Shown here: positions 2,760-22,116 of the stretch, in pieces
Position numbering within the stretch: the stretch's first letter is position 1
Layout: each line of letters begins with the position of its first letter
Notes under the pieces: generated by a model
Database searches by the model: none
Told to the model about the DNA's origin: nothing
Seen by the model: the letters and a program-made list of their open reading frames with translations, nothing else
DNA from: an uncultured bacterium
GTDB taxonomy: Bacteria; Patescibacteriota; Minisyncoccia; Phycocordibacterales; UBA9973
Direction: 5' to 3'
Length of the DNA stretch: 47,700 nt
Assembly: GCA_903888625.1 (NCBI GenBank)
Contig: CAISUD010000041.1
Span: 1 to 47,700 of the forward strand
Made by a program: the position numbers and the translations under genes

Positions 2760-3602
2760 TTATTTTTTATCAGAATTTGCTAAGTCACCAAACACTTTAG
2801 CTATTTCTCTTTCATCTTCTTTCTCTTCTCTAATATTCTTTAAAAGAAGAACAAGGGCAGTTCTAATTTTTTCTGCTTTTGTTAAACATTCCTCATCAGT
2901 CCAATTATGTAAACCAATGCTTAATGAGTCGTGAAGCAAACCAAGAGTGTTTTGTCCACCACTTTTTAATTTTTCTGGTATTTTGTCTTTTATAATTTCA
3001 ATTTTTTTTGTGGTATTCTTTTCTAATCTTGCTTTTTCAGCCAATTTTTTAATATCACTATCACCACTTTTATAAATTTCATCCAAAATATAATCAATTT
3101 TATCTTCCACGAGTTGCCTATAATAGGCATATGCACCAATTCCAAAAGAAGAACTTTCACAACGAAAACCTTTTCTATAAATTTCAAAATCTTTTTTATC
3201 TAAAAGCTTTATTATTTCAGTTTCATTTAAAATTTGTAATTCAGGATATTGCCCTATCTTCATTATTTTTAATTTTAACTCAACACCATTATAATTTAAT
3301 TGAACAATAATAAAATACTGTTGTTTTATTGAACTGCAACCCTTACATTCATATTCAAGTTGTTTAATAATATTTATTATAAAATGGTCTTTACTCTTAA
3401 ATCTATCAAAAAATCTTTTGTTTTCAATTTCATTAAAGGTAGTTCTGTCTTCACATTTATTACAATAAAGAGATAAAGCTGGCAATCCTTCCTTTTGATC
3501 AAAAAACGCACCAATTGCATAATTTGGTTCGATATAAACTATTCCATTTATATTTTCCCATTTATAAAGTGGAACTTTTTCTAAAAAATCTTTTAAATTC
3601 AT
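2760..3602 (-). CDS. Hypothetical protein with CxxC...CxxC zinc-ribbon and a DUF4145-like helical C-terminus
   Basis: 280-aa ORF. Cys pairs are CNKC and CKGC. The C-terminal GLLHDSLSIGLH segment resembles the conserved DUF4145 helix. It is divergent from the LexA-Dcm gene. Confidence 0.5.
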   Translation of the reverse strand: MNLKDFLEKVPLYKWENINGIVYIEPNYAIGAFFDQKEGLPALSLYCNKCEDRTTFNEIENKRFFDRFKSKDHFIINIIKQLEYECKGCSSIKQQYFIIVQLNYNGVELKLKIMKIGQYPELQILNETEIIKLLDKKDFEIYRKGFRCESSSFGIGAYAYYRQLVEDKIDYILDEIYKSGDSDIKKLAEKARLEKNTTKKIEIIKDKIPEKLKSGGQNTLGLLHDSLSIGLHNWTDEECLTKAEKIRTALVLLLKNIREEKEDEREIAKVFGDLANSDKK

Positions 3603-3639: not shown

Positions 3640-3683
3640 TGTGGATAACCTGCTTTGATTTTCGGTATCTGTTCGGTTATAAT
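3640..3683 (+). promoter_or_regulatory. Promoter P1 of the LexA-Dcm gene with candidate operator repeats
   Basis: TGTGGATAAC at 3640-3649, -35 TTGATT at 3655-3660, a 17-nt spacer, and -10 TATAAT at 3678-3683. The spacer holds two direct repeats, TTCGGTAT and TTCGGTTAT, 11 bp apart. The ATG is at 3715. Confidence 0.55.
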
Positions 3684-3714
3684 ATAAGTGTAGCACAAAT
3701 GAGATTTTAAAGCA

Positions 3715-5292
3715 ATGAAAACTATAACAAAAAAACAAAAACAAGTTCTTGATTTTATAAACACCTATATATTGGAAAACGGTATCTCTCCCACTATTGA
3801 AGAAATACGAAAAAAGCTAAAACTCAAAGCGGTTTCCACTATTCATGAACATATAAATTCTTTAAAAGAAAAAGGATATCTTTCAAAAAGTGAAAATTCA
3901 GCCAGAAGTATTACTTTAGAGAAAGAAATAAAAACAGTTTTAGAAATTCCGATTATGGGGAAAATTAAAGCCGGTGCTCCGATTGAAGCAATTGAAGACT
4001 TTCAGGGAACAATTGCTGTTTCTAATCCTAATATAAAGAATTCAAAAGAATATTATGCCTTGCGTGTTTCTGGCGATAGTATGATAGAAGAAGGTATTTT
4101 TGATGGAGATATTGTAATTATAAAAAAACAATCTGTCGCAGAAAACGGGCAGACAGTAGTAGCTATCATTGACGACAACCAAGCTACTCTAAAAAAATTA
4201 TACAAAGAAAATAACAAATTCAGACTTCAACCTAGAAATCCTAATATGAAACCTCTTTTTAGAACTGATGTAGAAATCAGGGGTGTTGTGATTCAGATCA
4301 TTAGGAATGTATCAAACGAACCAGAAAAAAAGGTTGAGAAAAAAACAAAGCTCCAATTTAGAACTATTGATTTATTTGCAGGAATTGGTGGAATAAGAAT
4401 TGGTTTTGAAAGAGTTGGGTTTAAAACAGTCTTTGCTAACGATTTTGATAAGCAATGTGGAATAACTTATGATTTGAATTTTCCAACATCAAAATTGGTC
4501 ATAGAAGATATTAGAAAAATTGGAATTGATGATTTGCCAAAATTTGATTTTTTGCTTGGCGGTTTCCCTTGTCAGGCTTTTTCTATCGCAGGCTATCAGC
4601 AAGGATTTAAGGACAAGAAAGACAGAGGTAATTTATTTTTTGATATTGCAAAAATAATCGATGTTAGAAAACCAACAGGATTTTTACTTGAAAATGTAAA
4701 AAACTTAAAAAGTCATGATGAGGGTAAAACTTTTAAAGTTATTGAAGAAACATTAAAAAATCTTGGCTATTATGTCAAAATAAAAGTTTTAAATAGTATG
4801 GAGTATGGAAATATTCCACAAAACAGAGAACGTGTTTATATCGTAGGCTTTAAAGATAAAGATTATTATGAAAAATTTGAATTTCCTAATCCGATCAAGC
4901 TTACTAAAAAAATTACTGATTTATTGGAAAAAAATGTGTCTGAAAAATATTATTACAATGGAAAACCATTATATGAAAGATTAAAGAATTTTATAAAAGA
5001 AGAAGGAAAAGTCTATCAGTGGCGTAGACAATATGTTAGAGAAAATAAAAGTGGGGTCTGCCCTACGCTTACAGCAAACATGGGAACTGGAGGACATAAT
5101 GTGCCAATTATTAAAGATAAGAAAGGTATTAGAAAATTAACTCCATTAGAGTGTGCTAGAATTCAAGGCTTTCCAAATGATTTTAAATTCCCTAAAATAG
5201 CTGACTCTGCTTTATACAAGCAAATTGGAAATTCTGTTAGTGTTCCAGTTATTGAAGCTGTTGCAAGACAAATGATGAAAGCAATAGAATAA
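3715..5292 (+). CDS. LexA (wHTH + S24 autopeptidase) fused to a DNA (cytosine-5)-methyltransferase
   Basis: 525 aa in a single frame. The LexA part shows HTH STIHEHINSLKEKGYL, Ala-Gly site KAGAP, Ser nucleophile SGDSM and Lys ATLKKL. The Dcm part shows motifs DLFAGIGG (I), GFPCQAFS (IV), ENVKNL (VI), QNRERVY (VIII) and GNSVSVPV (X). Confidence 0.9.
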   Translation: MKTITKKQKQVLDFINTYILENGISPTIEEIRKKLKLKAVSTIHEHINSLKEKGYLSKSENSARSITLEKEIKTVLEIPIMGKIKAGAPIEAIEDFQGTIAVSNPNIKNSKEYYALRVSGDSMIEEGIFDGDIVIIKKQSVAENGQTVVAIIDDNQATLKKLYKENNKFRLQPRNPNMKPLFRTDVEIRGVVIQIIRNVSNEPEKKVEKKTKLQFRTIDLFAGIGGIRIGFERVGFKTVFANDFDKQCGITYDLNFPTSKLVIEDIRKIGIDDLPKFDFLLGGFPCQAFSIAGYQQGFKDKKDRGNLFFDIAKIIDVRKPTGFLLENVKNLKSHDEGKTFKVIEETLKNLGYYVKIKVLNSMEYGNIPQNRERVYIVGFKDKDYYEKFEFPNPIKLTKKITDLLEKNVSEKYYYNGKPLYERLKNFIKEEGKVYQWRRQYVRENKSGVCPTLTANMGTGGHNVPIIKDKKGIRKLTPLECARIQGFPNDFKFPKIADSALYKQIGNSVSVPVIEAVARQMMKAIE

Positions 5293-5295
5293 TTT

Positions 5296-6198
5296 TTAAA
5301 AAATAAAATCTACTTTAATTTTTTTAATTTGTTTAATTTGTTTTTCTAAATAATCTTTTCCCATATTTTCGTCACGGAGATTTACATGTGATCCATTAAA
5401 GGATGTGCTAATTTTAACAGCCATATCATTTTCTATCCAAAACTTAGCTCTTAATCTTAATTCCAAACGTTTTTTTGATTTGTATATTTTAGTATTACCG
5501 TATTCGTTCGCTATAAAATTATCTAAAAATACAGATTTACCTCTAACGGTAGTTCTTTGTTTATTTACACTAACTTTATTTAATTCATTTATATTTAAAA
5601 CAGCACCTGCAAAATAAAAATTTGTTCCATTTCCTTGTATACTCGGTCTAAGTATAAAAAAATAATATATTTTTTTTATTGGATAAGTTCTTTTTAAAAT
5701 TTCATACTTATCTTTATAAAGTTTTATCCACTTATCTTTAATTTCATCATAGCTATGTGAGGCAAAAAGACTATCTAAATCAATACCTGCATCTGCAAAG
5801 TTTTGACCAAGTGAGGCTTCTCCACTATCCCCATTTAAAACATTACCTGAAGCATTAACTTTCACATTAAGCATTTTTATATCAGCTCCCCAATTTTCAC
5901 GTTCATTATATATATCTATTGGATAAGAACCAGCACCAACAGGCTTGACATCTAAAGCTTGTGTAAACCATTGCTCTATATGTTCCTTTGGTATCTGAAT
6001 TGGCAATGACCTTTGTTCTTTTTTTGATTCGGGTTGAGCAAATAAAGATTTTATTATAAAGTATTTAATTATGTTAACCGCTTTGTCATCTAAAAAATTA
6101 AGTAATTCCTTGTGTTTTAGTGGATTAATTACAAAACTTTTCATACTATTTAATTTGTCCTTCTTTTTTATCATATTTATTCTATGAGTATGACACAA
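5296..6198 (-). CDS. Putative Type II restriction endonuclease partner of the Dcm fusion
   Basis: 300-aa ORF convergent with the MTase, with 3 nt between the stops. PIDIY...GADIKM is a candidate PD-(D/E)xK motif. The call rests mainly on context. Confidence 0.5.
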   Translation of the reverse strand: MCHTHRINMIKKKDKLNSMKSFVINPLKHKELLNFLDDKAVNIIKYFIIKSLFAQPESKKEQRSLPIQIPKEHIEQWFTQALDVKPVGAGSYPIDIYNERENWGADIKMLNVKVNASGNVLNGDSGEASLGQNFADAGIDLDSLFASHSYDEIKDKWIKLYKDKYEILKRTYPIKKIYYFFILRPSIQGNGTNFYFAGAVLNINELNKVSVNKQRTTVRGKSVFLDNFIANEYGNTKIYKSKKRLELRLRAKFWIENDMAVKISTSFNGSHVNLRDENMGKDYLEKQIKQIKKIKVDFIF

Positions 6199-6633
6199 AA
6201 AGAAATCTGAAGCAATTTGATTACTTAATTTAAAAATTTAAAATAGAATAATTTTAAAAATGATAAATATACCAAACTTTTATCTAAAAAAGCTTATTAT
6301 TTCAATATACAATAGACAGACTATTTACATCAATTTTCAATTGTTTTCTTAATATATTTTTCTCGCAAAAAGTCTTTAAAAATGGTATAATTTAGCTAAT
6401 TGGTAATAACTATTGCCAATAATTCTGGTTTTAGGGAGCAGAACTAAAACTAGACCTACGGGATTAAAATCTGCTTAGCAAGACAAATGAAAGTAAAAAA
6501 AATACCACTGTCAAAGCAGAGGTATTGATTCCGACCTTTAGAATTTAAAAATGTACAACAATTATAATTCTTAATATGTTTAAAATCAATACTTGACTGT
6601 AAAAAATTTTTATGGGGATTTTGTCTTAAATAT

Positions 6634-6759
6634 GTGTCAAAATCTAACGATAAAATTACCGTAAACAGATCCGCAATAACAGGAAAATTTGTTTCAGAAA
6701 AATATGCTGATAATCATCCGAAAACAACAGAAAAAGAAAATTATAGGAGAAAGAAATAG
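6634..6759 (+). CDS. Small hypothetical protein (41 aa, GTG start)
   Basis: Translates to VSKSNDKITVNRSAITGKFVSEKYADNHPKTTEKENYRRKK. A strong terminator hairpin follows immediately. There is no clear RBS and the ORF is below the ORF-track cutoff. Confidence 0.3.
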   Translation: MSKSNDKITVNRSAITGKFVSEKYADNHPKTTEKENYRRKK

Positions 6760-6762
6760 TTA

Positions 6763-6795
6763 ATCAAAAACCCTTACTCTGCGAGGGTTTTTGAT
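6763..6795 (+). terminator. Rho-independent terminator
   Basis: atcaaaaaccct / agggtttttgat form a 12-bp stem with a 9-nt loop and a T-rich tail. Confidence 0.6.
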
Positions 6796-7065
6796 TCTTA
6801 GCCATAATACTCAGCGATTGTTTGCGAATATACTGCGATTTCCACAGCGTAAACACCGAACCATACTGAAATGTGTGAAAACGCAAAGTACTCGCAAGAC
6901 AAATGATATTAACAATGTTTAAATCGCTTTAACTTCCCTATTAACAATATCAATCTGAAAATCAATATAATCCTTCATACAAAAAAACAAAACTTGATAT
7001 CAGGGTGTTTTGAAGGTTTTAACAGGTTATTTAAAATCTTGTGTTTTCTTGTGTTTTTTATATAT

Positions 7066-7460
7066 AAAAATTGTAACCTTTTTGTAACCTTTAGCGATAG
7101 TAAAACCTTATAGTTTTTTTATGTTTTAAATCTGCCGAAATCTTATCTTTTCTTACCTTCTTTAATAGCAACATCTTAATGATTTCTCAATGCTCTACCT
7201 TAAATTATCTTAAGTTTTATATCTACCGAAATCTTATCCTTTCTTAATAGTTTACCTTAATGCTATACCCTAAGTTTTAGTATTCTAAAAATTATAGGTT
7301 TTAATACTACGAAATTGTAACCTTTTTGTAACTTTTATGTGTATTAAAACCTTAACCTTTTCTTAACCTTTGGCTAATTAAATTTTTAGGTTTTTTTAGG
7401 TTTTAGTATTTTAAAAATTCTAAGTTTTTCTAAGTTTTGATTATATAAATACCTTTAGTT
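7066..7460. repeat. Iteron-like direct-repeat cluster (putative replication origin or partition site of the element)
   Basis: TTGTAACCTTT occurs in tandem at 7071-7092. The 21-mer aaattgtaacctttttgtaac is repeated at 7068-7088 and 7312-7332. ctRccgaaatcttatcYtttctta occurs at 7132 and 7222. tta/aggttttagtattYtaaaaatt occurs at about 7270 and 7398. No ORF is present. Confidence 0.5.
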
Positions 7461-7498
7461 TTATTTAGTTTTAGTTATTTAAAAAATCTCAAAATCAA

Positions 7499-7936
7499 TT
7501 AGTTATTCATATATTGGTCTCGAAGTAAATTAAACTGGTCACAACTAAAATTTGATAGTGATTTATTAGTAGATCTATAATCTAAACAATTTTGAACATC
7601 ATTACCTGTAAATTTATCAAAAATCACAGAACCTGTTTCTCCGTCATAAATGTAATCGTATCCTGCATAAACCTCACCACCATGAGATGATGTTATCTCG
7701 ACAAAACATTTTTTTAAACTAATATTATAGTGTGTAAAAGAATGAAAAATTGTATCAGAACCATATGTATTTTTTTCTTCAATTGTTTTCCCCCAATTAT
7801 GACAATTGTCTTGAAGTTGCATTAAATCCTTTTGCTTAGCTAAAGAACTTAGTTTTGAATTTTGCCCAACAAAATAGGCACCTGCTATTGCAACGATTCC
7901 AACAACTATAATTGTAATCAATGTATATTTTTTCAT
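7499..7936 (-). CDS. Membrane-anchored or secreted hypothetical protein
   Basis: 145 aa with an N-terminal hydrophobic segment (LITIIVVGIVAIAGAYFV) and several Cys. Confidence 0.6.
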   Translation of the reverse strand: MKKYTLITIIVVGIVAIAGAYFVGQNSKLSSLAKQKDLMQLQDNCHNWGKTIEEKNTYGSDTIFHSFTHYNISLKKCFVEITSSHGGEVYAGYDYIYDGETGSVIFDKFTGNDVQNCLDYRSTNKSLSNFSCDQFNLLRDQYMNN

Positions 7937-11988: not shown

Positions 11989-13557
11989 ATGCAAGAAAAT
12001 CAAAATAAAAAAGCAATAATTTACTGCAGAGTTTCAACTTCTGACCAAGCCGATAATGGACAATCAATTGAAGCTCAAGAAATTATTTGTCGTAGAGAGG
12101 CAGAAAAAGACGGATATGAAGTTGTTGGAGTAATAAAAGACGAAGGCAAAAGCGGTAGTACTTTAAAAAGACAAGGTATTCAGGAATTAATAAGAAAAGT
12201 AATGGCAAAAGAAGTAGACATCGTCGTAGTAATTCATTCTGACAGAATCGCGAGGAATACAATTGATCACATAACATTACGAAATTTATTCAAAGAAAAA
12301 GGAGTAATTCTTAAATGCTTAAATAAACCAATCGTAGGAAATACCGCCACTGATATTGTAATTGATAACATTATGGCTTCAGTAAATGAAATGCAATGCT
12401 TAATTACTGGAGAAAAAGTTATCGCTACTTTAAACGAGAAGGCAAAAGCAGGATATTTCCCTTCCTATCCCCCGCTCGGGTATAAAAATGTAAAAAATCC
12501 AAATCCGATGGATGGTAGATTATCAGAAAAAATTGTGGTGCAAGACGAATTAGTTGCACCTCTACTAAAGAAAGCTTTTGAACTTTATGTAACTGGAAAT
12601 TATAATGTCTTTGATGTTAGCGACATTTTATTTGAAAGTGGATTAAGAACTAGAAAAGGTTGTAAATTATCAGAAAGTAGACTTTATGAACTTTTAAGAA
12701 ATCCTTTTTACAAAGGAGAATTACATTGGGGAAGTATTCACATTACGGACCCAAAACTTGTAAAACATAAACCAATTATTGATGAATATACTTTTAATGC
12801 AGTTCAAAAAATAATGGACGGGAAAAATCATCACTCTTGCCGTAAAAGGAAATACGTATGGCTTTTAAATGGATTTTTGCGTTGTTATAAACATTCTTGT
12901 CGCTATACTGCTGAATGGCATTTAAAAAAGAAGATTGCTTATTACCATTGCACCAACAAAAGTGGTTGTGGAAAATATTCAGAACAAAACAAGTTAGAAG
13001 AAATGATTGCCAATAAATTTAAAACATTGGAATTCAATAAAGAATTTATTGATAAAGTAATTGAAAAAGCTAAAAATATTTTTTATGAAAGAAGAAAAAT
13101 ATACGACAATAAAAAACAAACATTAATTAATCAAAGAACTGCTTTTGAAACAAAAAGAAAAGTTGCCGAAGATGAATTACTTGAAAAAACTATCACTAGA
13201 GAAGCTTTTACTAGAATTAACGATGGACTTATTAAAGAACTCGAAAATATTGATAGTCGTTTAATAGATTTAGAAAAAGACAGGAATGTAAATGTTGATA
13301 TTGCTAAAGAAATAATTAGCCTGACTGACAACATTTATGACACCTACAAAAAAGCTTCACCAAAATTGAAAAAACAATATTTAGGATTTTTTTGGGAAAG
13401 ATTTGAGATTGCTGATGGACTTATAATTAAATCCGTTCCCTCTATCCTATTTGACGAACTTTTGAAGTTAGAACAGGTGTACCAAAAAACCGAAAATGCT
13501 TATATACCTAGTGTTTATAGTGAGGTTATAAATTCTTCTAACTGGCTCCGGGGGTAG
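11989..13557 (+). CDS. Large serine recombinase / integrase
   Basis: 522 aa. It has a resolvase-type catalytic N-terminus (IIYCRVSTSDQ, DRIARN), a recombinase domain, a Cys-rich zinc ribbon (CYKHSC...CTNKSGC) and a C-terminal coiled-coil. The last 15 nt overlap the tRNA-Asn 3' end. Confidence 0.9.
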   Translation: MQENQNKKAIIYCRVSTSDQADNGQSIEAQEIICRREAEKDGYEVVGVIKDEGKSGSTLKRQGIQELIRKVMAKEVDIVVVIHSDRIARNTIDHITLRNLFKEKGVILKCLNKPIVGNTATDIVIDNIMASVNEMQCLITGEKVIATLNEKAKAGYFPSYPPLGYKNVKNPNPMDGRLSEKIVVQDELVAPLLKKAFELYVTGNYNVFDVSDILFESGLRTRKGCKLSESRLYELLRNPFYKGELHWGSIHITDPKLVKHKPIIDEYTFNAVQKIMDGKNHHSCRKRKYVWLLNGFLRCYKHSCRYTAEWHLKKKIAYYHCTNKSGCGKYSEQNKLEEMIANKFKTLEFNKEFIDKVIEKAKNIFYERRKIYDNKKQTLINQRTAFETKRKVAEDELLEKTITREAFTRINDGLIKELENIDSRLIDLEKDRNVNVDIAKEIISLTDNIYDTYKKASPKLKKQYLGFFWERFEIADGLIIKSVPSILFDELLKLEQVYQKTENAYIPSVYSEVINSSNWLRG

Positions 13558-14760: not shown

Positions 14761-15729
14761 TTATTTTAAAAATTGAGTTACTAATCCTACCATTTGATCT
14801 TTCTTTTCTGGATTACTTTCTGCAATTAAAAGAGTAAGTGCAGTAAGTGCATTTGGATTGATATTTTTACCACCTTTAATATTTGTTCTTCGCAAAAACC
14901 AAATAAAAGCAAAAGCACCAGAACGTTTATTGCCATCGACAAAAGGATGATTTTTAACCATAAAATACAAAAGGTGCGCTGCTTTTTCTTCGAGCGTTTT
15001 ATAAACATCTTGTCCGCCAAAAGATTGCATCACATTTCCAATAATTCCTTCTATACTTCCAGCATTCCTTTCTGTGGCAAAAATATCTGAAGCCTCCCCT
15101 TTTTTGAGAAGTTCGGAACGTAAATTTTTTATTGCTTCGTTTAATTCGATTGCGGAAAACTTAACAGATTTTTTAGTAAAACCTATAGAAATTAATTTTT
15201 CTTTATCATAAGCATCGATAGACATCCAAGTACTAGAAAATTCTTTTATCAATTCAAGAATTGTTTTTGGATCAAGCAATACATGTTCTGGTAATAATGA
15301 CTGAACACTAGCCACAGCTTGCATAAAAGATTCATAATTTTTAGCAATTTGTTTTTTGTTTATGGTATAGCCTTTTGTAATATGTTCTTTAAGTGTCTTG
15401 GTTGCCCATTTTCTGAATTCTGTTGCAGTTTTCGAATTAACCCTGTAACCAACAGAAATAATTGCGTCTAAACTATAAAACTGAGTATTGTAAGTTTTTC
15501 CATCGTTCGCAGTATTCCGGAAATTCCGGATAACTGAATTTTTATCTAACTCTTTAGTTTTAAAAATATTAACAAAGTGTTCACTAATAGTTCTAATATT
15601 GACTCCAAAAACTTCAGCAATTTGAGCCTGTGTTGCCCAAATAGTCTCATGCTTAGAATCCCCTCGAAGTTCGATAGCTCCATTTTTTGCCTGATAAATT
15701 ACTAAATTATTTTTTATATTTTTCTTCAT
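14761..15729 (-). CDS. RhuM-like N-terminal domain fused to a Fic/DOC domain
   Basis: 322 aa. The RhuM-type segment is IWATQAQIAEVFGV...FYSLDAIISVGYRVNSKTATEFRKWAT. The C-terminal Fic motif is HPFVDGNKRSG. Confidence 0.8.
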   Translation of the reverse strand: MKKNIKNNLVIYQAKNGAIELRGDSKHETIWATQAQIAEVFGVNIRTISEHFVNIFKTKELDKNSVIRNFRNTANDGKTYNTQFYSLDAIISVGYRVNSKTATEFRKWATKTLKEHITKGYTINKKQIAKNYESFMQAVASVQSLLPEHVLLDPKTILELIKEFSSTWMSIDAYDKEKLISIGFTKKSVKFSAIELNEAIKNLRSELLKKGEASDIFATERNAGSIEGIIGNVMQSFGGQDVYKTLEEKAAHLLYFMVKNHPFVDGNKRSGAFAFIWFLRRTNIKGGKNINPNALTALTLLIAESNPEKKDQMVGLVTQFLK

Positions 15730-15788: not shown

Positions 15789-16046
15789 TTACTTTGATTT
15801 TTTTGTAAGGGTTATAAGTTTTAACTTCTCAACCCTTTTCAATTTTTTAATTCTGGATTCTTCCTTTGAAGCATTTGATCTGTTTTTAAATTTTTTAGAA
15901 TAAATCAATTCCACCGGCCGTCGAGCCCGTGTATACCTAGCCCCAAGCTTACTGCCATTATGCTCCCCCACCCGTCGTTTCAAATCTGTCGTAATACCAG
16001 TATACAAACTCCAATCCCTGCATTTTAAAATATATAGGTGGTACAT
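15789..16046 (-). CDS. GIY-YIG nuclease superfamily protein (UPF0213/YhbQ-like)
   Basis: Start moved to MYHLYILKC, because the track N-terminal extension overlaps a terminator hairpin. Supporting motifs are YHLYIL...LYTGIT...R..EH and a conserved E in KEESRIKKL. Confidence 0.7.
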   Translation of the reverse strand: MYHLYILKCRDWSLYTGITTDLKRRVGEHNGSKLGARYTRARRPVELIYSKKFKNRSNASKEESRIKKLKRVEKLKLITLTKKSK

Positions 16047-16057
16047 AAAAATGTGTA

Positions 16058-16091
16058 CAAAAAAAAGAAAACCCCTTATGATTAAGGGGTT
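16058..16091 (-). terminator. Rho-independent terminator
   Basis: On the minus strand AACCCCTTA-ATC-TAAGGGGTT is followed by TTCTTTTTTTT. Confidence 0.5.
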
Positions 16092-16267
16092 TAAGAAATT
16101 TTCAGACAAGAATCATTCTTAAATTGATCATATAATTCTTTTTGTTCTTTATTAGCTTCTTTTATTGCCGATTTTATAACCTTTTTTTGTTGGCTAATAG
16201 GCCTTGAAAAAAACTCTGCGAAGTCTGACTTTTCTTTATTTTTACTAAAAAATCTAGATATTTTCAT
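16091..16267 (-). CDS. Small hypothetical protein (58 aa)
   Basis: MKISRFFSKNKEKSDFAEFFSRPISQQKKVIKSAIKEANKEQKELYDQFKNDSCLKIS. It is below the track cutoff and ends in the terminator above. Confidence 0.3.
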   Translation of the reverse strand: MKISRFFSKNKEKSDFAEFFSRPISQQKKVIKSAIKEANKEQKELYDQFKNDSCLKIS

Positions 16268-17001: not shown

Positions 17002-17436
17002 TTATTTACCCATTCTCTTTAAATGGAGTTGATGAAATTTATTTAAAACCTCTCGTTCTCTTTCTATGTATTTGTTTAATATTTCCTCATTTAATAGTAT
17101 GTTGGTATATTTACCTTTTCTTGTCCTTTTTGTGTTAGATAATAAACCCGAGGAAAGATTTTTACCGTAAGTTCCATGACTTATATGATTCCTAAAATTA
17201 TTAATTTCATTTATTTCTTTACAAAGATCGTTTCCTGTAAAATCTTTAAGAATTTGAAGTTTAATAGAAATCTGCTGCGAGTATAAAAAATCTAAAATTG
17301 ATCTGAGTTTTAAATCAACCTGACTAATAATATAAACAAATTCAATACTTAAATTAGTATCAATTAAATTAAATAGAACAACAAATTGTCCAATCTTTTC
17401 TAGAATCTTTCTATTGTCTTCTAGTGGAGATTTCAT
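17002..17436 (-). CDS. HEPN-like protein (Rx4H motif)
   Basis: 144 aa, all-helical in appearance. INNFRNHISHGTYG contains R-x4-H as in HEPN, DUF4145 and Abi-type domains. Confidence 0.5.
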   Translation of the reverse strand: MKSPLEDNRKILEKIGQFVVLFNLIDTNLSIEFVYIISQVDLKLRSILDFLYSQQISIKLQILKDFTGNDLCKEINEINNFRNHISHGTYGKNLSSGLLSNTKRTRKGKYTNILLNEEILNKYIEREREVLNKFHQLHLKRMGK

Positions 17437-17651: not shown

Positions 17652-17694
17652 TGTGGATAACTTCCTTGTTTAGGTTATCTTTAGGTATTATAAT
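17652..17694 (+). promoter_or_regulatory. Promoter P2 of the LexA-MTase gene with candidate operator repeats
   Basis: TGTGGATAAC at 17652-17661, -35 TTGTTT at 17666-17671, a 17-nt spacer, and -10 TATAAT at 17689-17694. Direct repeats TTAGGTTAT and TTAGGTAT lie 11 bp apart. The layout matches P1. Confidence 0.55.
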
Positions 17695-17717: not shown

Positions 17718-19154
17718 ATGATAAATACACAATTAACAAAAAAACAGGCTGAGGTCATTCAATATGTAAAAAAATTTCAATCAAGGAAAAATTATTCCCC
17801 TTCCTTAAGTGATATTGCAAATCATTTTAATGTTTCAATCCCTACAATTCATGAACATGTAGAATATTTAAAAAAGAAAGGTTATTTAGAAAAACAAAAA
17901 GGTAAAAAACGTTCTATTCAACCAATCAAAAATAAAGATTTACTAATTATCCCAATCTTGGGAAAAATCGCTGCTGGTCAACCGATAGAAGCAATAGAAA
18001 TTCCAGAAGGATTTGTAACTCTTACTAAAGAGGAAGCAAAACCATCAGAGAAATATTATGCACTTCGTGCTATTGGAAACAGCATGATAGAAGATGGGGT
18101 TTTTGACGGAGATACTGTAGTTATTAGAGAACAGAAAACAGCAGATAATGGTCAAATGGTGGTTGCCATTATTGACGATAATCAAGCTACCTTGAAACGA
18201 ATATATTATGAAAAAAACAAAATACGTTTACAGCCAGCTAACCAAACATTACTACCTTTTTTTAGAACAGAAGTTGAGATTAGAGGTATTGTAGAAAAAA
18301 TAATTAGAAATCCAAACAATGAAATTGAAGAAATACGCAAAAAAGAAAATCCAATAGTTAAACATCTCACAAAAGATTCAGAAAGTATCTTTATAAATAA
18401 TGAATATAAAGTAAATAAAATTTATAACATTGATTGCCTTGAACTAACAAAAAAAATAAAAGACGATTCAATAGATCTTATTTTTGCAGATCCACCCTAT
18501 AATTTAAGCGGGAGTAATTTTAAAATGAAATTTACAAAATCAGGCGGTAGTGATTTAAATACCAATAAAGGAAAATGGGATCATTATAGTGATATGGAAT
18601 TTGAAGAATTTACAAAAAAATGGTTGTCTGAATGTTTTAGAATTCTTAAAAAAAATGGTTCAATTTGGGTTGCGGGCTCTTACCATAACATATATTTAAC
18701 GGGTTATTTAATGAAAAAAATTGGTTTTGAAATTTTAAATGAAGTTTTATGGCATAAGTCTGATGCTACCCCTAATTTATCTTGCACAAGATTTGTTGCT
18801 GACCATGAAAATTTTATTTGGGCACGAAAAGGCAAAGGAAATATATTTAATTATGCTATAATGAAAAAGTTAAATGGTGGAAAACAAATGCGATCACTTT
18901 GGACAAAAGGTAAAACAACAGGCGGAAAAAGAATACATCCAACCCAAAAGCCAGAATGGCTTTTGGAAAGAATCATAACGGCAACATCTAATAAAAATAG
19001 TATTGTATTTGACCCATTTCTTGGTTCAGGAACAACTGCAGTCGTTGCAAAAAAATATGAAAGACAATATTTAGGTGCTGAATTAGATCAAGATTATTAT
19101 AAGAAAGCAATTGAAAGAATAAATCAAACAATAATATGCAAAAACATTATTTAG
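17718..19154 (+). CDS. LexA (wHTH + S24 autopeptidase) fused to a beta-class N6-adenine/N4-cytosine DNA methyltransferase
   Basis: 478 aa in a single frame. The LexA part shows PTIHEHVEYLKKKGYL, AAGQP, IGNSM and ATLKRIY. The MTase part has motif IV FADPPYNL before motif I FDPFLGSGTT, which is the beta order. Confidence 0.9.
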   Translation: MINTQLTKKQAEVIQYVKKFQSRKNYSPSLSDIANHFNVSIPTIHEHVEYLKKKGYLEKQKGKKRSIQPIKNKDLLIIPILGKIAAGQPIEAIEIPEGFVTLTKEEAKPSEKYYALRAIGNSMIEDGVFDGDTVVIREQKTADNGQMVVAIIDDNQATLKRIYYEKNKIRLQPANQTLLPFFRTEVEIRGIVEKIIRNPNNEIEEIRKKENPIVKHLTKDSESIFINNEYKVNKIYNIDCLELTKKIKDDSIDLIFADPPYNLSGSNFKMKFTKSGGSDLNTNKGKWDHYSDMEFEEFTKKWLSECFRILKKNGSIWVAGSYHNIYLTGYLMKKIGFEILNEVLWHKSDATPNLSCTRFVADHENFIWARKGKGNIFNYAIMKKLNGGKQMRSLWTKGKTTGGKRIHPTQKPEWLLERIITATSNKNSIVFDPFLGSGTTAVVAKKYERQYLGAELDQDYYKKAIERINQTIICKNII

Positions 19155-19888
19155 TTTTAGGAGACGCACTAAAAGTTTTATCAAAAATAAAAAATAAAGT
19201 AGATGCGGTTATTGTTGATCCACCTTACAATACAGCAAATAAAAATACTAAGGTTTTAAAAGGCAGAAAAGCAAGGTCATCTGATTTTGGCAAGTGGGAT
19301 TATTTTACAAATGATGAATACTTAAATTTTACAGAAAATTGGATAAAATTAGTACAATTGTCTTTAAAAGAAAATGGAAATCTCTTGATTTTTTCAAAAT
19401 TAGAATATGTTAGTGACATAAAAAGAATCTATGAAAAATTAGGTTTTAAACATCATGGTACTATTATTTGGCACAAAACAAATCCTGCCCCACAAATAAG
19501 AAAAAATGGATTTCTGTCATCCTGTGAAGCTATTTTATGGGCAACTAATGGTTTTGATAATAAAAAAATATCATATACATTTAATTTTTCAAAACAAAAT
19601 GAAATGCATAATTTTATTCAAACACCAATTTGTATGGGGCATGAAAGAACTGCTCATCCAACGCAAAAACCTAAAAAGGTTTTATCACATTTAGTAAAAA
19701 TATTTACAAATGAAAAAGATATAATTCTTGATTGTTTTGCTGGTAGTGGAACATTAGCAGAAGTAGCCAATGAACTAAAAAGAAATTCAATCAGCATAGA
19801 AAATGATATAAATTATTTTAAAATAATGAAAGAACGTCTAAAAAATATAAAAGGTGTAAAAATTTTGAAAATAAAAAATAGTATTTAA
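19136..19888 (+). CDS. Second beta-class N6/N4 DNA methyltransferase
   Basis: 250 aa. VIVDPPYNT (motif IV) precedes ILDCFAGSGT (motif I). There is a 19-nt overlap with the upstream fusion gene. Confidence 0.85.
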   Translation: MQKHYLVLGDALKVLSKIKNKVDAVIVDPPYNTANKNTKVLKGRKARSSDFGKWDYFTNDEYLNFTENWIKLVQLSLKENGNLLIFSKLEYVSDIKRIYEKLGFKHHGTIIWHKTNPAPQIRKNGFLSSCEAILWATNGFDNKKISYTFNFSKQNEMHNFIQTPICMGHERTAHPTQKPKKVLSHLVKIFTNEKDIILDCFAGSGTLAEVANELKRNSISIENDINYFKIMKERLKNIKGVKILKIKNSI

Positions 19889-21189
19889 AACTTTACTTCT
19901 ATTTCCTCATATTTTTCTATTGCCCAATTTACTCTATATGCATGTCTATTTCCTTTTTTATCAACAGCTAAAAATACATTTGGAATTCGATCATTATTAC
20001 GTTTCTTTTCTAAACTAAAAATTTTTTTTATCTTTTCAAAATTAAATTCTTCTTCTGCAAAAATCCAAACTTTACTAAAAGCGTTGTTTTTATTATGCCC
20101 ATGGTCTAAATAGTTATTCCAAGAATGCTCTAACTCTAATTTTTGTTTTGTTCCACCAGAAAAAATTAATTCAACATCAGGACCACCTGAACTTATAACT
20201 TTTACATCAGTAACTTCTTTTCCATCTATTGTAAAATTTCTTTTCCAGTCTAAGAATAATCTTAAGAAAGTACTAAATTCGTCTTCTTTTCTTACTTCAT
20301 AATCAACTTCAGTTTCACAATATTGTTTTTTTAATTCTTCCCAACTATAATCTAGCCTCTCTTTTATGTTTTTATCTTCTTTTGAAAATTCAATAAGTGC
20401 ATCATCAAGTGAATATAATTTATAAGAATTTCCATCTTTATCTTGGCAAGTTTTTGTAAGTAAATTTACATTTATTAATAACGGTTTATTATCAAAAAGA
20501 TCTTCATTCTTTAAGGCATATATTCCACCACCCCAAGGATTTTCTTTTGTTGGTAAAACAATTAAAGGATGAAAATTCTTCTTTTTTAATTTTTTACCTT
20601 GCCAAAGATTAATTAAATTAAATTGTAAAATAGTATTGCTAGAATCAACAAAATTATTTACTAAACTTCTTATAAAATATTGTTCATTTGAACTTTTAAA
20701 CACAGATTGTTTTGCATAACTAGCACTATCTCTTTTAAGAGGTATTTTATTATTTTTTTCTAACATTGTTTTTACATGAGCTTGAGACTCCCTAACATTA
20801 CGTAACCATGCTTCATTCTCTAAAAGATTTTTTAGTTTTTCATCATTGGTATATGCAGAAAGTTCCTCACGATTAAGAACAATTTTCCCATTACAAATAG
20901 CATTAACCAATTTAGAATCCTTACCTAAACTGCATGAATTTACAATACTGGAACCTCTTTTGACTAAACCTCTCCATGTCAAAAGCGTGGAAAAATTCCC
21001 CCTTAACCCACCAAAACGTGTGTCATCTAAATATTTATAATCTTTTTTATTAATTTTTAAACGAACAAGTTCGCTTTTATGACGATTTGATAGTTGGGCT
21101 AAGTCATTAGTATTAAAAAAACTATTACGATAAAAACTTGCGATATCAAGAGCTAAAAATAAAATGTTTGGTAATTTAATTTTATACAT
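19885..21189 (-). CDS. Putative restriction endonuclease
   Basis: 434-aa ORF convergent with the two MTases, with a 4-nt overlap of the stops. The C-terminal GGPDVELIF...KLELEH is a possible PD-ExK-like site. The call rests mainly on context. Confidence 0.5.
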   Translation of the reverse strand: MYKIKLPNILFLALDIASFYRNSFFNTNDLAQLSNRHKSELVRLKINKKDYKYLDDTRFGGLRGNFSTLLTWRGLVKRGSSIVNSCSLGKDSKLVNAICNGKIVLNREELSAYTNDEKLKNLLENEAWLRNVRESQAHVKTMLEKNNKIPLKRDSASYAKQSVFKSSNEQYFIRSLVNNFVDSSNTILQFNLINLWQGKKLKKKNFHPLIVLPTKENPWGGGIYALKNEDLFDNKPLLINVNLLTKTCQDKDGNSYKLYSLDDALIEFSKEDKNIKERLDYSWEELKKQYCETEVDYEVRKEDEFSTFLRLFLDWKRNFTIDGKEVTDVKVISSGGPDVELIFSGGTKQKLELEHSWNNYLDHGHNKNNAFSKVWIFAEEEFNFEKIKKIFSLEKKRNNDRIPNVFLAVDKKGNRHAYRVNWAIEKYEEIEVKF

Positions 21190-22116
21190 TTATTTTTTAG
21201 TAAATTTTTTATAAACTTGTTTAACTAACATCATTGCATAATCAATATCTTCAAGATTTTTTACCTTAAAAAGAGACACGTGTTTATTGTAATGCTCCAT
21301 ACTAAAGCTTTGATAAGTAACTCTTTTTTCCGGATCATTTAAATCTTCTGGTTTAAATCTCAAAAGATGTATTTCAATAAATGATTTCTTTGGGTTTAAC
21401 TCTACTACATTTGAATTTCCAATTTTACAGCCTACGTAGTTTTGTACTGGAGAGAGTTTCATATTTGGATCTAATGCCACAATTTTTTCACTTAAAACAT
21501 CAAAAATTTCTCTTGATTCTTTCCAGTTATCTTTAAAAAGACCCTCAATGCTATAATTTTTTATTTCTTTGGTAACTGATTCAAACCTTGGATCTTTCAT
21601 AATTAAATCGATAGACTCACAAGAATCGGAAGCTTCTATCTTATTAAAGAAAATCGAATTATTTTCAAAAATCTTTATTTCATAAAGGTCAAAAGCCATG
21701 TTTCTAAAATTAACAGAGTTTATTTGGTGTTGTGTAAATGAAGGAGAAATAAAAACAATACGAGATTGTGACCAATCTACATCACCACGACGCAAATGTT
21801 CTTTTTTATGTTCAAAATATTCTTGCAGAAAAAAATCTTTTTTGTTTAATAAAATACCAAGATATGAAAAACCCTGGTCTACGATAGAAAAATTACGGTC
21901 TTTTTTATACTCAATTATAATGAATGCTCTAGTTTCAGGATTCCAAGCAAGTGTATCAAATCTAAAATTATCAACTTTCAGTTCTGAAGCAATAAACTCA
22001 AATTCAAATATGGTTTTAAGATTTTTCTCAGTCAATTCTTGTATATTTTTTTCAAGTTTAATTTTCTTTTCAGAAACAGGAACTAATTTAGTTTTTTCTA
22101 TTTTAAAAAGTGACAT
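21190..22116 (-). CDS. PD-(D/E)xK nuclease-like protein (NucS/DUF91-type N-terminal module)
   Basis: 308 aa. FDTLAWNPETRAFIIIEYKKD...DQGFSYL fits the D...E-x-K module. Its stop abuts the ATG of 19885..21189 with a 0-nt gap. Confidence 0.55.
   Translation of the reverse strand: MSLFKIEKTKLVPVSEKKIKLEKNIQELTEKNLKTIFEFEFIASELKVDNFRFDTLAWNPETRAFIIIEYKKDRNFSIVDQGFSYLGILLNKKDFFLQEYFEHKKEHLRRGDVDWSQSRIVFISPSFTQHQINSVNFRNMAFDLYEIKIFENNSIFFNKIEASDSCESIDLIMKDPRFESVTKEIKNYSIEGLFKDNWKESREIFDVLSEKIVALDPNMKLSPVQNYVGCKIGNSNVVELNPKKSFIEIHLLRFKPEDLNDPEKRVTYQSFSMEHYNKHVSLFKVKNLEDIDYAMMLVKQVYKKFTKK

Follow-up and report, generated by a model that had tools for sequence, protein, structure and literature searches.

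A LexA lineage fused to DNA methyltransferases of predicted restriction-modification systems in Patescibacteria

The fusion gene and its recurrence

The window analysed here (the whole 47.7-kilobase (kb) stretch of DNA from an uncultured member of the Patescibacteria; contig CAISUD010000041.1, positions 1 to 47,700) carries a gene in which a LexA repressor and a C5 cytosine DNA methyltransferase share one open reading frame (ORF), followed tail to tail by the gene of a candidate restriction endonuclease. Coordinates are those of the window, and residue numbers refer to the protein of 525 amino acids (aa) translated from ORF 3715..5292. The features of this locus are as follows, with distances in nucleotides (nt).

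3655..3683, forward strand: sigma-70-type promoter of the fusion gene (TTGATT, 17 nt, TATAAT); promoter scan, 10 of 12 matches, kept in orthologous loci
3661..3676, forward strand: predicted LexA-type operator TTCGG-N6-TTCGG, a direct repeat that fills the spacer between −35 and −10
3715..5292, forward strand: LexA-C5 methyltransferase fusion gene, an uninterrupted 525-aa frame; Pfam and NCBIfam domains, database clusters
3715..3906, forward strand: LexA winged-helix DNA-binding domain, residues 1-64 (PF01726 LexA_DNA_bind, 8e-16); recognition helix STIHEHI
3949..4293, forward strand: S24 peptidase and dimerisation domain, residues 79-193 (PF00717 Peptidase_S24, 1e-31)
3970-3975, 4078-4080 and 4192-4194, forward strand: scissile Ala86-Gly87, Ser122 and Lys160, respectively, by alignment to Escherichia coli LexA
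4309..4356, forward strand: Lys/Glu-rich linker, residues 199-214 (16 aa), sequence-variable and without internal Met
4357..5277, forward strand: C5 cytosine methyltransferase domain, residues 215-521 (PF00145 DNA_methylase, 1e-95)
4570-4572, forward strand: catalytic Cys286 of the C5 methyltransferase
5296..6198, reverse strand: convergent candidate restriction endonuclease, separated by 3 nt from the stop of the methyltransferase gene; 300 aa when read from a TTG

A first-pass annotation of the same DNA had proposed a single 525-aa frame with LexA hallmarks in residues ~1-200 and Dcm motifs in residues ~215-525, and all three proposals were borne out. The ORF list and the placement of three Pfam domains in one protein established the frame, and the profile searches that the annotation had suggested (PF01726, PF00717 and PF00145) set the domain borders at residues 1-64, 79-193 and 215-521. 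Each quoted LexA motif was located (AGAP at 86, GDSM at 120 and LKKLY at 159), and the NCBIfam lexA equivalog TIGR00498 matched at full length over residues 1-199 with 189 bits, well above its cutoff of 111. Alignment with LexA structures (PDB 7b5g and 1jhh), which begins at residue 1, placed Ala84-Gly85, Ser119 and Lys156 of the E. coli protein opposite Ala86-Gly87, Ser122 and Lys160; the Ser/Lys dyad and the Ala-Gly site are thus truly aligned. The C5 methyltransferase motifs followed in their expected order (FAGIGG at 221, motif I; PCQ at 285, motif IV; ENV at 326, motif VI; QNRER at 369, motif VIII; and GNSV at 505, motif X), the NCBIfam dcm profile TIGR00675 scored 346 bits, and the closest solved relative of this half, M.HhaI, aligned over its full length (2e-57).

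Between the two halves, sequence identity among orthologues ranges from 0 to 79%, compared with 70-93% in the flanking domains, and this variable stretch between conserved domains behaves as expected for a linker. No Met occurs in or near it, so a separate methyltransferase isoform is not expected and the enzyme should be made only as a fusion. The AlphaFold model of the whole fusion was uninformative (predicted local distance difference test (pLDDT) score, 44.6) because the alignment rows were 77-88% identical.

The architecture recurs widely. Each of the 120 best database clusters, at 77-88% identity, combines these three domains in a single protein of ~525 aa, and the total number of clusters sharing this architecture exceeds 120, drawn from the independent NCBI, JGI, ENA and Logan assemblies. 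The clusters come mostly from Parcubacteria, Paceibacterota and other Patescibacteria, and the source databases annotate the proteins either as ‘transcriptional repressor LexA’ or as ‘DNA (cytosine-5)-methyltransferase 1’. In a scan of one genome per species, at least 26 genomes contained the full fusion, among them the complete one of the cultured strain Candidatus (Ca.) Saccharibacteria TM7i (locus L025). The survey of candidate phyla radiation and other genomes for LexA-methyltransferase proteins that the first-pass annotation had advised therefore revealed a scope wider than first thought. A frameshift or chimera, introduced in sequencing or assembly and joining a lexA gene to a dcm gene, would fit with the existence of some relatives that keep separate lexA and methyltransferase genes (loci L039, L043 and L046), and otherwise nothing speaks for it; the same continuous frame in so many clusters and species genomes, one of them complete, makes such an error vanishingly improbable. 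We rejected it on the strength of this recurrence across independent assemblies, in agreement with the annotation, which had argued that the architecture was no artefact.

Among mobile elements, no relative of the fusion was found in a viral contig collection, and a query spanning the domain junction retrieved no clear LexA-Dcm fusion from PLSDB or INPHARED, where matches fell on the S24 portion or on the Dcm portion. Coverage was 80% or more for one plasmid record and four phage records; the match in phage Javan374 spans two annotated genes, and the others were not inspected.

A LexA clade and its predicted operators

When the LexA part alone was searched against 1.84 billion cluster representatives, the closest ~60 (44-61% identity) were almost all proteins of 270-890 aa in which an N-terminal LexA precedes a long C-terminal extension; stand-alone LexAs of ~200 aa appeared mostly at 47% identity or less. 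Domain scans were conducted on 52 long fusion representatives, each standing for one cluster at 50% identity and together 34-54% identical overall. LexA_DNA_bind and S24 were detected in 52 of 52, and in every one of them the C-terminal part was a DNA methyltransferase, with the following families represented.

N6_N4_Mtase: 30 representatives
Eco57I: 7 representatives
D12: 5 representatives
N6_Mtase: 5 representatives
MmeI: 4 representatives
C5: 3 representatives

The Ala-Gly pair, the Ser and the Lys were invariant in all 52 representatives and, beyond these, in all 85 LexA-type proteins collected. A neighbour-joining tree built from the LexA parts placed every fusion in one clade, together with three unfused LexAs encoded directly 5' of methyltransferase genes, namely L039 (C5 and Eco57I methyltransferase), L043 (a Vsr-Dcm operon) and L046 (an N6_N4 methyltransferase-XcyI operon). 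L049 and L051, whose downstream gene has no Pfam match, also fall inside this clade, and the canonical LexAs that precede a Y-family polymerase gene lie outside it. Judged from sequence, a single clade of Patescibacteria LexA paralogues is attached to predicted DNA methyltransferases of at least six families, mostly as fusions and in a few cases as an unfused upstream gene.

The predicted operator of the fusion gene is the sole TTCGG-N6-TTCGG site in the window, even when one mismatch is allowed. It is kept upstream of 24 LexA-type genes, canonical lexA genes included, and those canonical genes that precede the Y-family polymerase gene bear the same TTCGG box. The overall promoter/operator consensus across the orthologous loci and canonical Patescibacteria lexA genes is TTG..-tTTCGGttTtT.TTCGGt-TATAAT, and TTCGG boxes are nearly restricted to lexA-type promoters, with only six other sites in 622 kb of related loci. 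In form, the operator is a direct repeat like GTTC-N7-GTTC; such direct-repeat LexA boxes are established in the Alphaproteobacteria, as is the divergence of the motif after lexA duplication (PMC8565304).

Comparison of the recognition helix with the operator half-site across the 85 LexA-type proteins revealed that the two partition together with zero exceptions, as follows.

Helix ST[IV]HEH or ATVH[EQ]H: half-site TTCGG
Helix STAHYY: half-site TTCTA
Helix STAH[YH]HV: half-site TTCGA, reversed, downstream of −10
Helix SLATVHEHL: half-site TTTGG
Helix PTIHEHV (the window's second fusion gene, at 17718): half-site TTAGG

That the two vary together is, among the computational results, the best evidence for binding of the repeat by the LexA domain, and the jointly diverging helices and operators provide a natural series of matched specificity changes.

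Further elements lie at these promoters. The 9-mer TGTGGATAA, which resembles a DnaA box (reverse complement TTATCCACA), occupies 3640..3648 on the forward strand, 6 nt 5' of the −35 hexamer. It occurs five times in the window (at 3640, 14415, 17652, 47559 and, on the reverse strand, 22794) against 0.38 expected, and stands just upstream of −35 at both LexA-fusion promoters as well as at the promoter of the nuclease operon of the second system described below. Of 81 LexA-type genes, whether fused or canonical, 33 also have it in the 150 nt upstream, in one orientation or the other, compared with a background of 0.005 per 150 nt; lexA-type promoters may be co-regulated by DnaA or another factor through this element. 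A second element, TGTAGC(A/G)CAAA, lies at 3690-3700, 6-8 nt past −10 and near the expected transcription start; it is kept in most Dcm-fusion loci and absent from stand-alone lexA promoters. The divergent gene upstream (2760..3602, 280 aa) was considered as a member of the system and rejected, as it is not conserved in orthologous loci.

Partner genes, methyltransferase specificity and the second system

The convergent ORF at 5296..6198 likely starts at the ATG at 6144, which gives 282 aa. The first-pass annotation had described it as a 300-aa PD-(D/E)xK candidate, and this held in part: the ORF is present with a conserved P-x-D...D-x-K pattern, in which P75-x-D77 and D88-I-K90 are invariant and fall on adjacent predicted strands, but neither a family nor a significant structural match supports the assignment. 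Its 454 homologues are all unnamed; Pfam, NCBIfam and PADLOC returned no match. The 282-aa protein was modelled by AlphaFold with a pLDDT of 90.6, and a fold search against the PDB yielded no match at E≤0.001, the weak matches including ThaI, HincII, DpnI and Sau3AI.

Comparison of the Dcm-type loci showed that a convergent ORF follows the fusion gene in 27 of 28, the gap to the methyltransferase stop being at most 11 nt in 26 loci and 66 nt in the remaining one, L016. These partners belong to at least eight unrelated families, comprising Bsp6I-like (11 loci), NgoFVII_C-type (which includes the TM7i partner), PDDEXK_5 and five unnamed families, to one of which the window's partner ORF belongs. 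Tail-to-tail partners in the other fusion classes include MvaI/BcnI, EcoRII-C and HNH enzymes, and a divergent Vsr gene accompanies seven Dcm-type loci. The flanks of the cassettes are wholly different between loci (chaperonin/UvrA, ATP synthase/MreB or PolA, for example), which is the picture expected of mobile cassettes. Taken together, the locus is best read as a predicted Type II restriction-modification system whose C5 methyltransferase is a LexA fusion.

The target-recognition region is 73-93% identical among the methyltransferase orthologues, whichever the partner family (L001-L029), and this similarity indicates that these enzymes probably have a single specificity in common. Bsp6I cleaves at GCNGC and NgoFVII at GCSGC. 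In the window, GCNGC was observed 17 times against 53 expected under a Markov model, the most depleted of 18 words tested; from this depletion and from the Bsp6I and NgoFVII partners of its orthologues, the C5 methyltransferase is probably GCNGC-like in specificity. The association of one methyltransferase orthologue with at least eight unrelated partner families suggests frequent nuclease swapping around a fixed specificity.

On the minus strand, 5' of the nuclease gene, the region 6760-6960 contains a single terminator-like hairpin, AAAAACCCTCGCAGAGTAAGGGTTTTTGA (~6760-6790), which comes after a GC-richer, ORF-free stretch of ~150 nt and is followed downstream by two good promoters (6767-6740 and 6589-6561) that precede the nuclease gene. 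This region may represent a small RNA or a long 5' leader; an Rfam scan of 6150-7550 gave nothing significant.

At 7030-7475 on the forward strand, inside the ORF-free stretch 6200-7500, units of 10-11 nt form about nine separate tandem doublets. They mostly differ in word (TCTTGTGTTT twice, TTGTAACCTTT twice with this word present two times over, CTTAACCTTT twice, TTTTTAGGTT twice, TTCTAAGTTT twice, TTTAGTTTTA twice, and others). With one mismatch allowed, a scan placed seven of the window's eight doublets in these 440 bp, compared with one to four per whole window in shuffled sequences and 0.06 per kb in related loci. Their form recalls LexA-type direct-repeat operators, TTAGG and TTCTA half-sites among them. 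The idea that they are operators of other LexA-type proteins gained no support from a metagenome scan for TTGTAACCTTTTTGTAAC, in which none of 120 loci had a LexA relative; many of those loci looked like iteron arrays.

A second, independent fusion had been proposed at 17718 by the first-pass annotation, and profile searches identified it as LexA joined to an N6_N4_Mtase. The features of this second system (system 2) are as follows.

17652..17694, forward strand: promoter of the second fusion (TGTGGATAA, TTGTTT, 17 nt, TATAAT)
17670-17685, forward strand: predicted operator of the second fusion, TTAGG-N6-TTAGG
17718..19154, forward strand: second fusion, LexA with a CcrM-like N6/N4 methyltransferase, 478 aa; Pfam and NCBIfam
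19136..19888, forward strand: second methyltransferase of system 2, N6_N4_Mtase, 250 aa; 76% identical to its L050 counterpart
19885..21189, reverse strand: convergent candidate restriction endonuclease of system 2, 434 aa; 55% identical to the partner in the L050 cassette

The nuclease candidate of system 2 has no Pfam or PADLOC match. The whole three-gene cassette (LexA-methyltransferase, second methyltransferase and nuclease) has an orthologue in L050, from a metagenome-assembled genome of Ca. Saganbacteria, a different phylum, with identities of 60%, 76% and 55%, respectively. Between the two cassettes helix and half-site have changed jointly, TTCGG with ATIHEHI in L050 and TTAGG with PTIHEHV in system 2. 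The operators of the window's two fusions also differ from each other, so the two predicted repressors should not interfere.

In the minus-strand gene string of the system-2 nuclease candidate, the 308-aa ORF 21190..22116 gave a full-length match to PDC-S18, a candidate defence family of PADLOC (7e-88), and a weak match to DUF5655; system 2 may be part of a small island of defence genes. Between the two systems lie genes of mobile-element or conflict type (11989..13557, 14761..15729, 15789..16109 and 17002..17436), including a large serine recombinase (Resolvase and Recombinase), a Fic/RhuM protein and an ORF with a weak HEPN match, in addition to one ORF that we take, by eye, to resemble a GIY-YIG nuclease. 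The region between the systems looks like a mobile or defence island.

Predicted regulation and relation to known controllers

On balance we favour a model in which the fusion is an autorepressed methyltransferase that retains a RecA-triggered self-cleavage switch, with the chain of events running through to damage-triggered derepression. The part of this model in which we have most confidence is autorepression through the operator. The LexA part would dimerise via its S24 domain and bind TTCGG-N6-TTCGG between its own −35 and −10, so that the methyltransferase would repress its own synthesis, with strong expression on arrival of the cassette in a naive cell and weak expression once steady state is reached. 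Self-cleavage at Ala86-Gly87, stimulated by RecA on single-stranded DNA (ssDNA), is most likely retained because neither the Ala-Gly site nor the Ser/Lys dyad varies within the lineage, and it would split the DNA-binding domain from the rest; we lean, by a slight preference, towards cleavage of the fusion being RecA-dependent. Damage, for instance from the partner nuclease cutting under-methylated host DNA, would then detach the DNA-binding domain and relieve the promoter of repression, and since the S24-methyltransferase fragment would stay intact after cleavage, methylation capacity would rise. More methyltransferase after damage would make sense as protection against self-restriction.

Outward effects of the switch are less certain. 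Stronger transcription of the methyltransferase might lower nuclease expression by transcriptional interference, an idea suggested by the convergent arrangement, in which the nuclease gene is 3 nt away with no terminator detected between the two genes; we regard such an effect on the nuclease gene as rather doubtful. As the operator type is shared with canonical Patescibacteria lexA genes, cellular LexA and the fusion may cross-regulate. The broadest form of the proposal, in which the clade is a damage-sensing LexA controller lineage of Type II restriction-modification across the Patescibacteria, with cleavage derepressing the methyltransferase, convergent transcription dampening the nuclease and the cassette wired into the host SOS response, is put forward as tentative and as somewhat less likely than not.

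Several points weigh against the proposed switch. DNA binding, cleavage and methylation are computational predictions, and the conserved catalytic residues indicate purifying selection on the peptidase site, which is not proof of RecA responsiveness. Any influence on the nuclease gene is conjectural, and the window's partner ORF, for which a PD-(D/E)xK nuclease is plausible, has neither a family nor a fold match. The absence of a second TTCGG box from the window means that no link to SOS genes is visible here. Finally, if damage raised methylation, a phage attack that also triggers RecA would meet a weaker defence, so that the adaptive logic is uncertain.

An alternative that we consider unlikely is that the LexA module is only a dimerising, operator-binding autorepressor in the manner of M.SsoII and M.EcoRII, with no RecA response in vivo and with the peptidase site kept for slow constitutive self-turnover or for structure. 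The evidence for autorepression needs no cleavage, simple helix-turn-helix (HTH)-methyltransferase fusions such as M.SsoII and M.EcoRII already autoregulate, and neither SOS genes nor further boxes were found near the system. Against this stands the fixation of Ala-Gly, Ser and Lys in all 52 representatives, as divergent as they are, and in the full set of 85 proteins: a role in structure by itself would not fix all four residues, and a much smaller HTH would be enough for binding.

That the fusion might instead be the cell's main SOS repressor, carrying an orphan epigenetic methyltransferase that acts outside restriction-modification, is suggested by the name ‘transcriptional repressor LexA’ given by NCBI, by an operator type common to canonical lexA genes and by the lack of a recognised nuclease family for the window's partner ORF. 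This we judge highly improbable, given that the fusion clade stands apart from the canonical LexAs preceding a polymerase gene and that a convergent gene, in many cases a recognised restriction enzyme, is present in nearly all Dcm-type loci. The wholly different neighbourhoods, as for mobile cassettes, the presence of two fusions with different operators in one window and the depletion of GCNGC argue in the same direction.

A full-text literature search found no description of a LexA-methyltransferase fusion, in line with the first-pass annotation, to which none was known; a study of the Patescibacteria SOS network (Sanchez-Osuna, Barbe and Erill 2017, Environ Microbiol) might mention such fusions. 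In function, the nearest analogues of the fusion are methyltransferases with N-terminal HTH regions and the controller (C) proteins.

The C5 methyltransferases M.SsoII, M.Ecl18kI, M.EcoRII, M.MspI and M.ScrFIA possess an N-terminal autoregulatory HTH region. Like the M.SsoII/M.EcoRII type, the fusion places a DNA-binding domain N-terminally on a Type II C5 methyltransferase, with an operator at its own promoter and predicted repression of the methyltransferase gene. Here, however, the N-terminal 200 aa are a true LexA, with winged helix, S24 peptidase/dimerisation domain and intact cleavage site, rather than a short HTH, so that the likeness is one of function and not of descent; moreover, the operator is a direct repeat within the promoter spacer, the nuclease gene is convergent and shares no regulatory region, and the same module occurs on at least six methyltransferase families. 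C proteins (C.PvuII, C.BamHI, C.AhdI and C.Esp1396I) are small Xre-type HTH dimers that bind palindromic C-boxes and mainly time nuclease expression. The LexA lineage resembles them as a dedicated, exchangeable transcription factor that travels with cassettes and forms specificity groups with matching operators, and its unfused members L043 and L046 stand first in their operons, as C genes do. In contrast to C proteins, which contain no signal-sensing protease, it combines a LexA winged helix with an S24 domain, a direct-repeat operator, predicted control of the methyltransferase promoter and a predicted damage-responsive switch. Since fold, operator type and regulated gene all differ from the features that define HTH-methyltransferases and C proteins, the fusion is a member of neither family.

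With canonical LexA, the fusion has in common full-length homology above the TIGR00498 cutoff, the same catalytic residues and a predicted box at its own promoter; it differs in being fused to a methyltransferase, in forming a separate clade tied to restriction-modification genes, in having no visible SOS regulon around it and in its diversified half-sites (TTCGG, TTAGG, TTCTA and TTCGA). CapH/CapP of the cyclic-oligonucleotide-based antiphage signalling system (CBASS) and prophage S24 repressors such as lambda CI are separate damage-responsive regulators that control effector genes. As in those systems, the promoter of a defence or mobile element would be held off by a repressor that is proteolytically inactivated on damage or ssDNA, but here the repressor is part of the protective enzyme, and the gene induced would be the antidote, the methyltransferase, rather than a toxin. 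Overall, the LexA-methyltransferase design appears to be new, related by function to HTH-methyltransferases and C proteins and by descent a true LexA.

In a restriction-modification system the nuclease acts as a toxin and the methyltransferase as its antidote, and the two must be kept in balance; the known solutions include C proteins, antisense RNAs and short HTH extensions; we know of none of these that senses when the balance has failed. From the sequence comparisons, the clade described here is a widespread, monophyletic LexA lineage with its own predicted operators, dedicated to restriction-modification, in which LexA was co-opted as a portable module for regulation that has passed between methyltransferases of six or more families. 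The fusion appears to be the standard restriction-modification design in the Patescibacteria, which to our knowledge largely lack clustered regularly interspaced short palindromic repeats (CRISPR). If the proposed switch is real, it would provide a built-in feedback loop against autoimmunity after the nuclease cuts under-methylated host DNA, and the shared operator type would tie the cassette to the SOS network of its host and could perturb it. If true, this would be the first restriction-modification system to read its own collateral damage, through a methyltransferase that itself bears the damage switch.

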